A program made the position numbers and the translations under genes. Below, one piece after another: positions 31,422-46,626 of a stretch of DNA of 64,000 nucleotides. The stretch spans positions 248,001-312,000 of the forward strand of contig ML978129.1 in assembly GCA_010015805.1 (NCBI GenBank), read 5' to 3'. How positions within the stretch are numbered: the stretch's first letter is position 1; each line of letters begins with the position of its first letter. The DNA comes from Rhizodiscina lignyota (lineage: Eukaryota). Below the pieces are notes generated by a model. That model ran no database searches. It had not been told where the DNA came from and was given only the letters and a program-made list of their open reading frames with translations.

Positions 31422-33076
31422 TCATAGCGCAGCAATAACTCCCAAAACACCCAACAGCCCCGCCATTCCAACACCCTCTGGGACCCTCACCGCCGCACCG
31501 GTGAACTGTGCTGGCCCGCTCTGTGTTGCGAGAGCAGCTGAGCCGGTGGCAGAAAGTGTCGCCGTGCCGTTCAAGATCGGGAAAGGCGTCGCGGCCGACC
31601 CACTGCCTTCTGGTGAGAACGTAAGGGTCTGTGACATCGCCGCGGAACCGCCCGCCGCTGATGGAGCCGATTGCGCAGCTCCTAAGGGTGCTGAACCAGG
31701 CGCAGAGGTCATGTTCGCGCAGGGTGCTGTGCCATTTCCCACTGCTCCGGCAGGAGTGCTAGCGCCGGTAGAAGCGCCCGCAGTTGCGCTTCCAGAGATT
31801 CCAGCGCCGAGGCTGCCCGAATCTTGACCTGGGCCACCTGCTTCACCGGAGAATCCACCTGAGCCGGAGCCAGAGCCGCTTGTGGAGTTGAAACCACCGG
31901 ACGTTGAATTGCCTGGACATGGTAAGTTTGTCGGCTCTTGAACAGTCAAGTACGAGTTTGTAGAGTTGAGAGTTGAAATTGGGGAGCTGAGACCTGACGG
32001 CGAAGAAACTGAGGAAGTAATGAAAGCCGGCGTGGAAGATACCGAGCGTCCTGTCGAAGAAAGAGAGCTGCTTGACTTACTTGCAATGCTTCCACCTGAT
32101 GAAGCGCCTGCCGAGCTTGAAGCGGAAGGAGCAGAAGCAGAGCTTGAGCTCGAGCCAGAGGCAGCTGAATCGCTCGTACACTTGATGCTCTGGTAGCTGC
32201 CAGTCTTGTCCGAGTATTCGTATGACGCACAAGGGTTGTAGTTCTTGATCGTGATCTGCGATACATACATGTTGAACGGGGCGTCGGCCATGTTAGCCAT
32301 GCCGCCGGCCCACTCAACGGTACCTGGATCATTCTTTGGCTGACCAGCGACCCAGTTGCCGATGCGGAGGTTGAGGGGCGTTTGAGGGTAGTTCTTCCCG
32401 CCGACTGCGTCGGCAAAGTTGAGTGTTCGAACTGCCTGGCCATCGATGTACCACACTGTCTTGTCTTGCTGCCAATCCACTGCATAAGTATGCACGGTCG
32501 TCTGCGGAGTAGTAACGGGGTGGAATTGGCCGCGGTCGTAAGTAGTAGTGTTTCCCTTTCCAAAATAATTTGACTGGACTTGAGTCGTCTGGCTTCCAAT
32601 GATTTCCTGCGAGGAGTGTTAGGAATGCCATGACCAGGATATTTCATCATTGCCTACCAAATCAATCTCATCCAAGTCCTGTGACTCCATGACGAATGTG
32701 CTGACGATTCCAGCGCCGGGTGCGGCTTGCATCTTCATCTCAACATAACCAAAGAAAATATGAAAGTTGCTTTGAAGCGTCGGGCCATCATTAATGGTGT
32801 TGATCTGGAAAAGTCCGCCCAATGACGAGGTCTTGAGCTCTCCGCTGGTCATAGTCCAATTGTCTGGAACTCCTTTGGTCAAGTCGATGGTGTACTCTGC
32901 TTGATTGAGTCCAACAGAGTTTAGACATGTTTCTGTACAGAATAAGCATCCTTACACCTCAGGCGAACCTAGTGCAACCTACTGTCCATGGGATTGCAGG
33001 CCGTTGAAGTTTGCGCGGTACATAGTGGAAGGGCAATAGCCGCAATGGCGGCCAAACTGGACACAACGCTATGCAT
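31422..33076 (-). CDS. crh1: Crh1/Crf1-type GH16 chitin transglycosylase, GPI-anchored cell-wall protein
   Basis: Three exons. Signal peptide, TACNP..C, FFGYVE.KMQAAPGAGIVS, catalytic DLDEIDLE across an intron, QSNYFGKG, HTYAVDW, YPQTP, GTVEWAGG; Ser/Gly-rich stalk; hydrophobic GPI signal. Confidence 0.92.
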
Positions 33077-39486: not shown

Positions 39487-40175
39487 GTTTAGGTCGAGTT
39501 GAATTTTTGAAAGAACAACGTAAGAACTCAATTGGAATATAAACGCAATATTGGGAGTTGTAGAGAGAGGAAATCAGCTCACCTTCCCCGCTCTAACGGC
39601 TGATGAAAGATTACGAAGCTAACTACTGTGATGACCAACCTACATGTGTTTTCGAGGCTTAAACTCCATGGTCCTCGAAGAAGGATAAACATTGGACTTA
39701 ATCTCCGAAGTCCGTTAAGCAAAATGTGTGCAAAGAAAGTCCAGAGAGGGGGAGACAGCCGAGTGAGCAAAAGGGGCTAGTACCATTTTGGGTTAAGCGC
39801 TTGCCTTGCGGAGCCGAGAAGGGTTTCGAGGAGGATTTCAAGAATCCAGTAATCTAATCACATCAACTGCGGACGAAGTAGAACCTCATATGATAAACCA
39901 TTACTCCTTGTGTCCAGTATGAGCATTGAGGGACCAAATCGCAGTAGCAGGAGATGATCTCAGCCTCATGTCTAGATCTGAGTGCCTTAGACTGCTGAAT
40001 GCCGGAATTCCACTAACGTTGTACACAGAGACGACATATTCAGAGCTGCTAAGTTACATTCAGAGCAAGAAGATGTGCTGGATATGCTGATATCGACTTT
40101 AAGAGTCACACTAAGCGCAGATTAGGCTAGAAGGTAAGTAGGATTTATCGTTTTGGCCTCTATGATGACGATCTC

Positions 40176-41306
40176 TCAGTCTACCTTGTGTCCATTAGCC
40201 ACTTCTCCTTTAGCTTTGCTCTTGCGAATGACAACCGGGACAGATGTGAATAACGATGGCCACACAACCTCGACTTCATCTTGCATGCCCTTCAAGCAAT
40301 ACCGCAAGTACACGCCCCAGGTCAGATTGTAGTATGCTCCGAGCCCAGTGAAGAGGTGCCTGGACAAGAGTTGGCTATATCCAACGATAGAAACGTCATT
40401 AGAGGAGGAGACTCACCACCAGCCATGTCCTTCAAGGACGATGCCCCACGGAAGGCCGATCTCTCGTCGCCACCGCCGCAGAGTTGAGCAATAGATATTG
40501 TCCAGGTTCCATATGAAGAAGCCGATGATCACCGAGAGGAAACCGCAGATCACCATCCACCACATTGTGTTAAGCATGCGAAGATCGCGAGCGTCACGTC
40601 TTGCCTGCTCTTTCTCATCGACATTAGCTGTTGATTCTTTGAGCGCGTCGGCCGATCTCCGCCTTCGCCTTGAAGGGCGTAGCTGCTCCATGTCATAAAT
40701 TCCCCTCGATACGACAAGGATGGCCAGCAAGGCAAACATGTTTTGGTGGAACACTGGATCCTTGAGATAATGGTAGTATCCTGTGATAAATGCGGCAAGA
40801 GAAACGGTGAAGACAAAGATACATAATCTGATGAAGGTTGATTTGTTAAAGGCGAAGACGGCGAAGAACGTCGTGCAAGTGAGGTATATCATGGACAATT
40901 CATCGAGCAGTTGCATGGAATCTATCAATCACGTCAGCCGAAGGACAATGGACAAGTCGGCAACGTTCATACATTTGAGGCTGGAGTGGAAGAAGAAGCT
41001 TCCGATTCCAATGAAGAGGTAACTAAAGAATGCGGCAAGAAATTCTGGATCGTGGCCATGCTGGATACAGTTGCGGATGCCTTTGTACGCGAGGCAGATG
41101 AAGACGAGATTCGTCAAGGTATTGACAATTTCCGCTGAATAAATGGATGCGTAGTAATCCTGCGGCTCGTCAGGAAACAGGCAATAGCCTCAAAGATCCA
41201 TCTTCATCGTTCTCACCTCCTCGCACCAATTAATTGTCGCTGTAACTGGGTTCCAGTATCCATCTTGCGTGGGAGGGTAAGGGACAGAGGGTAGTCACGA
41301 AACCAT
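40176..41306 (-). CDS. Alkaline (phyto)ceramidase, Ypc1/Ydc1/ACER3 family, with an in-frame TGA at codon 4
   Basis: Four exons with canonical introns. GYW.PVTATINWCEE|DY, AEIVNTLTN, GIGSFFFHSSLK|YSMQLLDELSMIY, IWNLDNIYC, LEGHGWW|HLFTG. Exon 1 reads ATG GTT TCG TGA CTA CCC. Confidence 0.9.
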
Positions 41307-42996
41307 CCTCTTCGTCAAGAGTGCTAGCGGCAGATATCGGACCTCAAATCGATCAGAGCGTGAAAAGGGCTGGATTTATTAAGAACGAAAAGATTTGGAC
41401 GTTGAGAGGAGAGCCGGCGTGTCCGGCCTGCCGGCAGGGCTGAACAAGGGGCGGACCGAACCGAACGTGAAACCCCTTCCCAGTTTGGCAACTGTGCCTT
41501 ACGTCGTCTCAGTTCTTAAACACAGGACTTGTCTCTTTACAGGAGTAGCGTTCGCGAAAATCGATTCAATTGGCAAGGTGTCATATTTGAGCGTTGGACC
41601 TTTACGCGCGAGCGTCGAGTAGATTGAGAAGTAATCGTATGCGAGGCCAATCACCACTACGTGCGAGCGTTGGTTCAATTAATAAGGAGCCGTATTCGAG
41701 AGGATTCACCTCTATGTAAGAGCGGTTACCACGTTCAGAGGTAGCTCTCCCTATTTAGCCATTTCCTCTCGGAGCTTCGGTTGTCTGAAGCCGATTTGCT
41801 CTGCCTGTCGAACCACGAAATCGCGTAGGTTTGCCGTAGTGCCCAGTCTCGTGAGGAATTTTGATATTGCTCGACTAATCATTTAAAGAACTAATAGAGA
41901 CACTATATCGGCCGCCTAGACGTAGTCTCTATAAAAGGCGAATCGTCGATATGCGACGAATGCGTTAATACTATTGAATTCGTGGATACCGACATTGAAT
42001 ATTTGAGAATGATCCGCATAAGCGAGATAAATGTGCGATCGACACCGATCTACTGTACGGCACCCTCATCGTTATCCAGTAAGACCAGTAGTCCTTGGGC
42101 TGACAATGCCATACTTGCTGCTGTCTAGGTTGTGGGGGAGCACGATATAGCTCAGCTGTATGGGAGTGAAGTCACCTTTACGCGCGAGCACTGATTCAAT
42201 TGAGCGGTGGTCGTATTTGAATGCTGCGACATTTACGTGGCAGGGCGCGTAGATAGCTCCGATGCAACGTCGCGAGAAATTGAGCTTGCTTGGGGAGAAT
42301 AACGCGGATGAGGCGCATGCGTATGGCGATGTAGGTTTCGAAGTCTGAGAATACATGCGACTCTAGCGCGCTTGCGCTTGCTTGCGAAACTTGAACTATC
42401 GCAACCAAAGTCATTCTTCTATCACTATCCCCCAGAGAACCAGACACTGTGCTCTCCCTGATTTATGTGCCTTTAACCAATGTACGACTACATGCGAAGC
42501 TTGCGAAATCTCCAAAGATGACTTTGTTCTTTGCCATTTGCCTATCCATGAAGTGTCAATTGCTACTTGGGAATTCCTACTGCGCACTGCTAGTGCATGT
42601 TTCGCGAGCGGCCCACTACTTTACCCATGTCCTTCTTCGATTCAAAATATATTGGCCCGTAAAGGCATAGATATCTAAGTCTTGCTGCATACACAGGTTG
42701 GCCGCGAGTGCTGGCCGAGCGCGCATACGATTATCTGCAGGATTAGCTTATTGCATTTGCGCAAACTTGGGCAAATCCGTAGGGTTAGTAACAACTGCCT
42801 ACTCGACGCTAGCATCGATGCGTGCGCAAATACCATGCTCTATGAGATGGGAGCTATTTAACTACAAGTACAGTAACAGACGAATTTCAACGGGAATAGA
42901 ACGAATTGTCCGTTATCCAAATACTACCATCGTACACAGGGAATAAAACGCCATAACAAGCCCAACCCCAAAATAAGCACACCCTAAACAGTAAAC

Positions 42997-43728
42997 TCAA
43001 AACTCCTCAAAGAGGACTTGGTACTCCATGTCTCTCAATATACCAAGATGCTCTTCTTGAAAATCCTCACTGTATTCCCACGGGGAATCCTCCGGAGGAG
43101 AATAGAGCTCCGTGGGTCTCTGGAGGAGAGGAAGAGGAGCCGGAGGGGAAGCGGCGACCGGGCCAGAGAACAAAAGAGAAAGTGAAGAGGAGGCGGAGGC
43201 GGAGGTAGGAGGAGTGAACGAAGGAGAGAGCGAAGGAGGGGCGGAGGTAGGAGGAATGGAAGAAGGAATGGAAGAAGCGACGGAAGAAGGGATGGCAGGA
43301 GGAATGAAACGAGGAGCCATAGGATGAGCAAATGGAGGAGCAGGAGGAGCAAAGGGAAGAGCAGGAGAAGCCAAGGGAAAGGCAGGAGAAGCCAGGGGAG
43401 AAGCGGGAGGAGCCAGAGGAGAAGCCAGAGGAGAAGCCGCAGGCATTTGTACTGGCTCATCGGAGCCAGTTTCGTACTGCTCATGGGCCATTGCCGCAAG
43501 AGTTCGCCGTTTTCTCGCGGTGTACTTCCGCGTTTTTCTGGCGATTTGCGCCCGAGTTAGAGGTGCGCGCGGCTCTGTCGCATGGTTGTTGGCATCACCG
43601 TTGGATGCCGTTTCGAGTATACCGAGAGCCTGTGTGTTGCTCGCCGGCTTGGCCTTCTGGGCTCTCCTTGATTTTGCCTTGCGCCTAGCAGCGGCAACGG
43701 TCTCGCCCTGTTGAGCGCGGTTGTCCAT
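42997..43728 (-). CDS. Orphan low-complexity protein: basic N-half, Pro/Ala/Ser repeats, acidic C-tail; 243 aa
   Basis: ATG in AAAAATG context and an uninterrupted 732-nt ORF. No recognisable domain. Confidence 0.5.
   Translation of the reverse strand: MDNRAQQGETVAAARRKAKSRRAQKAKPASNTQALGILETASNGDANNHATEPRAPLTRAQIARKTRKYTARKRRTLAAMAHEQYETGSDEPVQMPAASPLASPLAPPASPLASPAFPLASPALPFAPPAPPFAHPMAPRFIPPAIPSSVASSIPSSIPPTSAPPSLSPSFTPPTSASASSSLSLLFSGPVAASPPAPLPLLQRPTELYSPPEDSPWEYSEDFQEEHLGILRDMEYQVLFEEF
43330..43440. repeat. Degenerate minisatellite built from GGAGAAGCCAG-like units
   Basis: GGAGAAGCCAAGGG / GGAGAAGCCAGGG / GGAGCCAGAGGAGAAGCCAGAGGAGAAGCC; encodes ASPL/ASPA repeats on the minus strand. 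Confidence 0.7.
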
Positions 43729-46626
43729 TTTTCAGAGGTTTATGTGGAGTGCTTGAGAGTATGGTTGAAAGTTTGGATCGATCTGACGTTGGATCTCCGT
43801 TAGAGCCTTGAACACCTTCGTGAAGATTTGATTTACTTACTGTTGGGTTGCTTGGAGTTGCGGGAGGCGTGTAAATCGTCACTGTGTTCTACCTGGGCAA
43901 GGTGATGCTTGATGGTTTAGAAAATATGTGAAGAGATGAGAAAAGTTTATAGTCGGCGGGAGCTTGGGATTGATGGAATTTCAGGCCAAGTCAATAGAGC
44001 ACGTATCTTGCGTGAGTCAGTGCGGAGCAAACCAGAGTGTGGGATCTTGCTTGGGCCTCCAACCACGTACTAGCTATATCAGAGATGCTAGGTACCTGCA
44101 CTGGCGAGCGTGGAGTGACATTCTCAAACCCGGGCTCCTCATTTGTCACAAGAGCCAAAGCCACCGCGAGCCCCCTTTCCTTTCGCAACGCCCCCTCTCT
44201 TTTCCTTCGGTACGCCTCAGCCACGCAAGCTGCACATGACCACCGACAGCCAGCACCGGCAACATGATTCGGGACAAGAGAATAAGCTCTGACGACGACT
44301 AGAATGGTTACAGCAACTACATTGGTAGCATCCAGAGAGCATCGTGATAATGTCAGCGTATCGGTAATATCGGACGAAACGAAAGCCCGGAGGCGGAAAG
44401 GGCGACTGACAGGAATCCAAGCGAGAGCAGTACCCATCAACTGTGCCTCGATGCGACAGTCCCAACATGAGGGCATTTGTCAGGATGCGAATGAGGGGTC
44501 ACAGTATGTTGGGTAGCGTAAGGTGCTGGAACAAGCCAGTGCGCGTCGAGGGGCATATCTGCAGCGAAAGGAGTAGTTCTGCTATCCTCGAAATCAGCAA
44601 ATGCTAACAGTACGCTATGCCATCACTCAACAGCAACCAATGTTGACAGCACGATGCGACAGTCGGCGGGTCGGTTTTTACGTCGAGCAACGAAGCACAG
44701 GCAGCAACAGACCACATCGTGTGGGAGCCTGAAGCGGTCGACGACAATTCGGGGGTGACGACACCAATAGATGGAGCGGTCAATGACAACGACGGAGGAA
44801 GGTGCCAAAAGAGAAGGATACCGTTATAGAGGGAGGCCAGGGATACCAGAAGCGTCAACATGGAACATTAATGCGCGGTCCAGCCTCGAAGCATTGGTAC
44901 TTCCGGCGCTGGCAAGGCAGCATGAGGCCCCGCGACGAGAACGGTTGTCGAGGAGATTGCTCGGATGTTGCATACCTCAACTACCACAGCAACATCGACT
45001 ATGATGGTTCACATAGCGGGAATCGTGATCCGGATACTGTGGCAACAGGAAGCCCATTGAGAGAAACTTGCGCGGATGGAGTCGCCACTGTTCTCTTTGC
45101 TTTACGACTCCATGTCAATGGGATGCGCTTTCGTAAGCTCTTTAGTCTTTGTGTATAGCGCCATTCTGGTCTCTTGAGGTGGCAGGGCTAGTGCCATAGT
45201 CACATTCGATCCACGCCAGGAACCCAAGGATAGTGGAGGCATACACTATGCTAGGAATCTCTAGCATCTCTTCACGATACTGTTCGAAATCCGGAGAAAT
45301 ATTCTCATATTACTGTGGCAGCACCATGCTACAAAGGCAAGGAAACTGTAACCACGTTCGACCCGAAGGAGTCGGCGCTGATGTGTGGCCATCTTGAGTC
45401 GACTGAGGGCTTCCAAAGGGGTTTAAAGGTGTCGAAACATGATGCAGTCATTGAACGTTGTCCCATCCTCATAATTGTTGCCAGCTTCTTCATGAAAAGA
45501 ACGTGAAATTGGTCGCTTGAGGTTGAAGCTGGCACAACTAGCCCCCGAGGTTTTCCCTTTTTGTGAGCGTGGTACACGTGGTGACCAAAACCATCCATCG
45601 ATCCGTGCTCAGAATATCACCAAAACTGGTGATTATGTCATAGTCACCGAGGGTTAGGGTTTACAGCTCGAACTTTAATGCAGAGACATCAGACCATGTG
45701 TCTACAGCAGCGGTTGGCTTTCACTGTTCATTGAAAGCTTAGAGAAACCCTTGAGAAGTTCATGCTTTAAAATAGCGCTCAATTTTATTTAAGAGTACGG
45801 AGTATCGTATACTACTCTGTTGGTCTATTGAGTGGCTATATACTTGTACTACTAGCTCTTAGATGGTTATTCTTCCTTAGATGGTATCTCTTAATCCTCT
45901 TAATGACGTTTGATATAAGCTTTTTGTCCCTTTTATTTTATTTTATTTTAATTTTATTCCTTTTTTCCCTTTGGGGAGGCTTCGCGAGGTTGACTACGAA
46001 TGTGGCCGCAATCTAGATCAGCGCAAAGAGCAGTCCACCCACTCCGAGCCATTTTTGCACGCCGAAAATATATCAAGTTTTGATAATAGATGAGGAATCT
46101 CACGGAGAGGCTTTTTTTCAGTGCCTTTTATAGTAAACTCCAAAATGTGGCAACTATTGCGCATCATGACTCTAGAATTCAACGATCGGTAGGATGTGAG
46201 CGCTACTTGGTACAAACCATAAAGACCTCATCTATCAGATATCAAGGTCCAATCTGAACTCAGTGATTACGAACAGTGGGGGGCGTGGGGTTTCAAGAGG
46301 ATCGTTCAATTTTCAACGGGCGCGGTCTACGCCTCTACAAGACCCATAACATACACAGCCACCAAAGCATTCTTTTTGTCCTGCCGGCAGTAAATGAACA
46401 AAGTCGACAAGGCATCGACATATCCCAGGTTGAAGCAGACTTATCCCAAGACCAGAAAGACGAAGTCGGATCGCTAAGATGGTATCTCATCCGCCGGACA
46501 ACATAGAAGCAAAAATCGGAAACGTTACAGTCGCGCCGCGCGAACGGCATTATCTCTCCACGCGCCAAACGAGAGAAAACGAAGCCCTTTCTACATCGAG
46601 CCCTTGACCTGGTCAAACTGCGAAAG

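Follow-up and report, generated by a model that had tools for sequence, protein, structure and literature searches.

An in-frame TGA-CTA at codon 4 of an otherwise intact alkaline ceramidase gene in Rhizodiscina lignyota, probably a young nonsense allele

The ceramidase locus

The window analysed here, that is, the whole 64-kb stretch of Rhizodiscina lignyota DNA, carries on its minus strand a ceramidase gene of four exons, the features of which are collected in Table 1. The spliced coding sequence amounts to 966 nt, made up of 321 codons and a terminal TGA at 40178-40176. Its three introns (57, 51 and 57 nt) all begin with GT and end with AG, and the length of each is a multiple of three. Read directly, the minus strand from 41306 to 41271 gives ATG GTT TCG TGA CTA CCC TCT GTC CCT TAC CCT CCC. 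The TGA in fourth position is the sole internal stop of the coding sequence. The preliminary description of this locus had placed the same letters, ATG GTT TCG TGA CTA, at the beginning of the minus-strand exon 1, with the TGA at 41297-41295, and we recovered them unchanged. The listed orthologues start at the equivalent methionine (for example MVSW.. or MPSW..).

Table 1. Coordinates of the features of the ceramidase gene within the window
Feature	Position	Strand	Remarks
Start codon ATG	41304..41306	-	strong context, A at -3 and G at +4: GAGGATGG
In-frame TGA, codon 4	41295..41297	-	column with Trp in 78 of 119 listed orthologues
CTA (Leu-5)	41292..41294	-	abuts the stop and is followed by C; core UGA-CUA context without the G of the extended motif
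Exon 1, 90 nt	41217..41306	-	M-V-S-stop-LPSVPYPPTQDGYWNPVTATINWCEE; includes the Ca-site loop (NWCEE)
ACG, codon 13	41268..41270	-	sole in-frame near-cognate start between TGA and GYW; poor context (C at -3, C at +4)
First ATG past the stop, CDS position 44	41261..41263	-	out of frame (+1)
Intron 1, 57 nt	41160..41216	-	GTGAGA..GCAG
Exon 2, 187 nt	40973..41159	-	TM1-TM2; Ser84 and His88 (ACER3 S77, H81)
Intron 2, 51 nt	40922..40972	-	GTATGA..ATAG
Exon 3, 505 nt	40417..40921	-	codon-95 ATG (40916-40914), Asp99 (ACER3 D92), His258 (ACER3 H217)
Intron 3, 57 nt	40360..40416	-	GTGAGT..CCAG
Exon 4, 184 nt	40176..40359	-	His262 (ACER3 H221); terminal TGA 40178-40176

Upstream of the ceramidase gene, the next long open reading frame of the minus strand lies at 42997-43731 (244 codons from stop to stop). 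It is rich in Pro/Ser/Ala repeats (ASPLASPLAPPASPLASPAFPLASP..), and none of its tested frames matched a Pfam family. Approximately 1.7 kb between this frame and the ceramidase start are apparently non-coding. Elsewhere in the window, a minus-strand frame at 34498-35523 matches DUF6914, a domain family with no assigned function (PF21858, E 9e-11). A tRNA scan of the window returned no tRNA genes.

A coarse screen of the 64-kb window was performed for other single stops flanked on either side by 60 open codons or more; by this design it is blind within 60 codons of a gene end. It delivered 60 candidate stops, four of which (in three genes) are spanned by a Pfam domain. All four were rejected as cases of recoding: they are canonical in-frame introns, two of them being introns 2 and 3 of the ceramidase gene itself. 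A sugar-transporter gene (PF00083) contains at 526-576 of the plus strand a short in-frame intron of the form GT..CTAAC..AG with a single stop, and the same arrangement is present in a GH16 gene (PF00722) at about 32610-32650 of the minus strand. In a six-frame view such introns mimic stops inside a domain. No further recoded stop was found among the stops lying at least 60 codons from gene ends.

Integrity of the gene and reality of the stop

The predicted protein matches the Ceramidase profile PF05875 over positions 2-258 of 259 (E 8.7e-90, 301 bits at a cut-off of 32.5), and human ACER3 (PDB 6g7o) with an E-value of 1e-47. The gene is an alkaline ceramidase gene of the Ydc1/ACER3 type, with the corresponding activity predicted. 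According to the structural description of ACER3, its zinc site is composed of H81, H217 and H221 with S77 and D92 as helpers, and an N-terminal calcium site is formed by the D19-W-C-E-x-N24 loop together with E33 (PMC6303388). In the alignment to 6g7o, the zinc-site equivalents S84, H88, D99, H258 and H262 are all kept, and the equivalents of the calcium site are N26, W27, C28, E29, D31 and E40. D19 and N24 of ACER3 are replaced by N and D, respectively, in keeping with the fungal consensus: among the 119 listed orthologues, 92 have the N and 101 the D. The ACER3 substitution D19G is described as affecting activity only partly (PMC6303388). The preliminary description had regarded the gene as otherwise intact, with three canonical introns and its catalytic motifs; the GT..AG boundaries and the complete set of metal-site residues bear this out.

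For comparison we used 119 orthologues taken from the best 120 of 263 protein matches; they are proteins of 294-2000 residues and all carry PF05875. Of the 106 alignment columns conserved in at least 90% of these 119 listed orthologues, 99 are kept by the ceramidase model, the orthologue median being 105. As few or fewer are kept by 11 of the 98 full-length orthologues, which puts the model at about the 11th percentile, and its seven departures are conservative. The coding sequence was also searched for signs of pseudogene decay: no further stops, frameshifts or lost splice sites were found in it. A disabling lesion, as expected of a unitary pseudogene, is present in the form of the stop at codon 4 of 321. 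Codon 4 aside, the gene is intact by its predicted product and codes for an enzyme whose lineage diverges somewhat; if it is a pseudogene, it is a very young one.

A separate observation concerns the gene models of the orthologues. Seven of them (P0014, P0015, P0016, P0017, P0034, P0039 and P0056) are devoid of the segment VTSTLNWCEE and read ..GFWSP directly followed by DYYAT... Because this segment contains the calcium-site loop, the seven short models most likely reflect mis-set donors of exon 1 rather than real deletions.

A base-call error had been among the alternatives named in the preliminary description, together with an inspection of reads at 41295 as the appropriate check. A Logan contig of 3727 bases, built from a public DNA run at a k-mer depth of 158, covers 39900-41900 with no differing letters, no gaps and no joints, and it carries the TGA. 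The introns are present in this contig without any joint, so the run must be one of DNA. Possibly the assembly was made from this very run, which speaks for one sample, not for other strains. With a separately built contig of this depth spanning the site without a single difference, we regard a base-call or assembly error at 41295 as practically negligible; the identity excludes such an error and leaves room for a strain-specific allele. A balanced second allele in the sequenced sample is unlikely, to judge from the unbroken contig.

The stop has been met before. An NCBI protein named 'alkaline ceramidase, partial [Rhizodiscina lignyota]' equals residues 5-321 of our model letter for letter. 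Since it begins with LPSVPYPP, right after the TGA, the annotators evidently encountered the stop as well. What the label 'partial' conceals is the ATG just upstream, together with the stop in its frame. For the most part the practical consequence is one of annotation: the gene should be flagged as bearing a genuine premature stop instead of being called partial.

Codon 4 and the origin of its context

In a MAFFT alignment of the 119 listed orthologues, the column of codon 4 contains Trp in 78 sequences, a gap in 16, Phe, Ser and Met in five each, and other residues in ten. The N-terminus of one orthologue (P0045), MVSWLPSVPYPP, is the same as that of the Rhizodiscina gene except at the stop. 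Aulographum hederae, placed in the same order (PMC7082219) and its only other sequenced member, has Ser at position 4 (P0064, MVASLPS). Trp is therefore the likeliest ancestral residue, not a certain one. The ascomycete consensus given in the preliminary description, M.SW(L/I)PS.PYPP, was largely right in this respect. Some orthologues lack position 4 altogether (MLPSTPYPP..). Because the position is variable and missing in part of the orthologues, any residue inserted there should be tolerated.

The nucleotide context was followed in a metagenome scan, which provided 67 related loci. With the best of them 62-68% identical, these are distant comparators. An exon 1 is recognisable in 36 of them, and the other 31 were left out of the counts. 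None of the 36 has a stop between the Met and the GYW motif. Fifteen distinct loci have Trp followed by Leu, and the codon after TGG is TTA in six, CTA in five, CTT in two, and CTC and CTG in one each. In four of the 15, the letters are TGG CTA CCC, the same as in the Rhizodiscina gene bar one base. CTA stands behind an intact TGG in these relatives, and we therefore conclude that the context predates the stop: an inherited TGG-CTA was probably hit by one G>A change. This agrees with an alternative raised in the preliminary description, that of a recent nonsense allele which is leaky and whose CTA is no more than the Leu codon of the ancestor.

The Leu codon deserves a remark of its own. Leu-5 is encoded by TTA or CTA in 11 of the 15 distinct related loci (L005, L009, L010, L011, L017, L020, L025, L029, L032, L034 and L038), and these two codons account for only four of the 32 Leu codons of the Rhizodiscina gene. 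It seems that a rare Leu codon ending in A is retained immediately behind the start, perhaps through an effect of codon usage or structure at the 5' end.

UGA followed by CU(A) is documented to promote readthrough in Ustilago maydis and in human cells (PMC4207609), as the preliminary description had stated for fungi and animals, and UGA CUA G is described as a strong, extended form of the motif (PMC4207609, PMC12233894). The core, UGA followed by CUA, is present at 41297-41292. The extended motif is not matched, the CTA being followed by C. Nor did we detect a downstream RNA structure: the 80 nt behind the stop fold with -17.1 kcal/mol, a z-score of -0.24 against 200 mononucleotide shuffles, and the fold around the stop is no better than shuffles either (z -0.44).

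These data bear on the possibility, proposed in the preliminary description as a dosage rheostat, that the stop is an evolved gate. Selection would then keep UGA-CUA at codon 4, and only those ribosomes that read through it would make ceramidase, at a low and possibly condition-dependent dose. The core motif works in fungi (PMC4207609), the gene is otherwise intact with all its catalytic residues, and a low dose could be favored, given that overexpression of YDC1 is cited as harmful in yeast (PMC4713442, citing its ref. 42). Moreover, of the 139 single-base changes that create a stop in the coding sequence (34 of them transitions), only the observed one produces TGA-CTA, a count which takes codon 4 as TGG and is post hoc, since the site was picked for its context. 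The lone TGA-CTA hints that leakiness mattered for survival, and it would be expected if no nonsense allele other than a leaky one could persist; an accidental leak explains it no worse than a design does.

Against the gate stands, above all, the origin of the context. CTA is common behind TGG in relatives (five of 15 distinct loci, and TTA or CTA in 11), so nothing in the context has been built for gating. Conservation of TGA-CTA in orthologues had been put forward as a check, and the stop is absent from all 36 related loci with exon 1, even the nearest of which are only 62-68% identical; one genome alone carries it. The G of the extended motif is missing and no stimulatory downstream structure was found. 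Further, doses are lowered far more commonly by a change in a promoter or in a uORF. We consider a gate unlikely.

Ways past the stop and comparison with known systems

If most ribosomes terminate at codon 4, it is worth asking how an enzyme could still be made. Reinitiation offers little. The first ATG behind the stop is out of frame, and the next one in frame is codon 95 (CDS position 283, 40916-40914). It lies past the calcium-site loop, S84 and H88, and reinitiation is therefore predicted to yield no active enzyme. The preliminary description had likewise located this ATG behind the WCEE motif and the first zinc-binding His, which is residue 88.

Alternatively, the stop might be bypassed, either by initiation at the ACG of codon 13 (41270-41268) or by an unannotated upstream exon spliced past the TGA. 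Some orthologues have short N-termini (MLPSTPYPP.., MFHIPYPP..) and ACER3 has only eight residues before GYW, so a shorter N-terminus could work. There is also ample intergenic space upstream, the next long minus-strand frame ending at 42997. However, the ACG is in a poor context (C at -3 and C at +4), and its use as a start would be purely conjectural. As for an upstream exon, the letters from the ATG to Leu-5 contain no AG. Past the stop, one first occurs at CDS position 42, in the weak acceptor AAG; splicing to it would remove the conserved LPSVPYPPTQ, which makes such an exon unlikely. Orthologues start at the same ATG, and the only upstream ATG within 400 nt opens a frame of 15 codons. 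Altogether a bypass by either route appears quite improbable.

A third way would be A-to-I editing of UGA to UGG at some stage of life, as in the genes of Fusarium and Neurospora whose premature stops are corrected in RNA. Fungi are known to have a class of genes that are intact except for a premature stop in place of a Trp codon, 71 of them in F. graminearum counting PUK1 (PMC11156358), and Rhizodiscina forms apothecial ascomata, i.e. sexual fruit bodies (PMC7082219). In the known cases covered by the review, UAG becomes UGG and U is strongly preferred at -1 (PMC11156358), whereas the stop here is UGA and its A is preceded by G. Editing had been judged less likely in the preliminary description for lack of U at -1, in agreement with that review. 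Fungal editing is also said there to favor hairpin loops (PMC11156358); in the minimum-energy fold, the A is predicted in a stem next to a loop of 4 nt, in a fold no better than shuffles (z -0.44). Genome-wide editing is described in Sordariomycetes and one Pezizomycete only, it was not found in A. nidulans and B. cinerea, and the term Dothideomycetes does not occur in the review (PMC11156358). Editing is thus very improbable.

Two other ideas were rejected. Judged by the preferences of repeat-induced point mutation (RIP), this process is an improbable cause of the stop: the changed G is in a CpC context on the other strand, and the gene is apparently single copy. Selenocysteine at the TGA is not applicable, because fungi are described as being without the machinery (PMC4207609).

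We suggest that the locus probably holds a young nonsense allele of an ordinary Ydc1/ACER3-type gene, near-null or weakly leaky, and not an evolved gate. What is observed is that one sequenced strain carries TGA where its relatives carry a sense codon, mostly TGG for Trp. A single substitution would have created the premature UGA, namely G>A in case the ancestor had TGG. Most ribosomes would end after Met-Val-Ser without recovering the frame. By chance, the new stop would find itself in UGA-CUA, the leakiest termination context known, and by analogy with other UGA-CUA sites a few percent of ribosomes at most may read through it. Ribosomes that do so may insert Trp, Arg or Cys and complete a full-length enzyme. 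Nonsense-mediated decay may reduce the yield further. The allele would then be near-null or a weak hypomorph. For natural UGA-CUA sites, readthrough of a few percent is reported, with about 4% for MDH1 compared with far less than 0.1% for most genes (PMC5133446), and the residues inserted at UGA can be Trp, Arg, Cys or Ser (PMC4207609). Since yeast can do without alkaline ceramidases (PMC4713442), the allele should be tolerable; even yeast that lacks LAG1 and LAC1 in addition to both alkaline ceramidases is reported to be viable (PMC4713442).

Several points count against a young nonsense allele. Firstly, the lack of a second lesion is compatible with selection that still acts, no less than with a mutation of very recent date. 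Secondly, the start ATG keeps its strong context. Thirdly, the post hoc observation that TGA-CTA is the lone outcome of its kind among 139 possible nonsense changes hints at a role of leakiness. Finally, the ancestral codon is uncertain, Aulographum hederae having Ser at this place, and the best relative is only 62% identical over exon 3.

As a young allele, the site offers a small natural test case, in which the leakiest known context coincides with a tolerant position. It may show how much function is kept by a UGA-CUA nonsense allele in a filamentous ascomycete. Were the gate true after all, readthrough would limit a whole protein rather than extend one. A sphingolipid enzyme that is potentially harmful would have its dose set at the N-terminus, and perhaps tuned by conditions that alter the fidelity of termination. 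Only with the same stop kept by further isolates or by sister species would the gene become an example of readthrough that throttles a whole enzyme, which would be new.

The Rhizodiscina gene can be compared with four known systems. With Ydc1/Ypc1 and ACER3 it shares the match to the full PF05875 profile, the zinc ligands and their helpers, and the equivalents of the calcium-site W-C-E and E33. It differs from them by the stop at codon 4. In both fungi and animals, metabolic enzymes acquire peroxisomal PTS1 tails by UGA-CU(A) readthrough (Stiebler et al. 2014, PMC4207609); Schueren et al. reportedly described such readthrough in 2014 as well. These cases have the same core motif and the same expected near-cognate decoding. 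Those sites are natural C-terminal stops, conserved across species, with the extension on a minor isoform (PMC4207609). In contrast, the Rhizodiscina stop sits at codon 4 and blocks the whole protein, and it is restricted to one genome and absent from 36 of 36 related loci.

The genes with corrected premature stops in Fusarium graminearum and Neurospora (PUK1, AMD1 and others) resemble our case in being otherwise intact and having an in-frame stop at a Trp position (PMC11156358). They have UAG with U at -1, belong to Sordariomycetes and are backed by RNA (PMC11156358), whereas Rhizodiscina has UGA with G at -1, is a Dothideomycete and is represented by DNA. The last comparison is with fortuitously leaky nonsense mutations in contexts of the UGA-CUA type (PMC4207609). 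Organism and gene are different. Nevertheless, we think that the site may be likened to them: both would be changes of the spontaneous or disease type, softened by a weak termination context.
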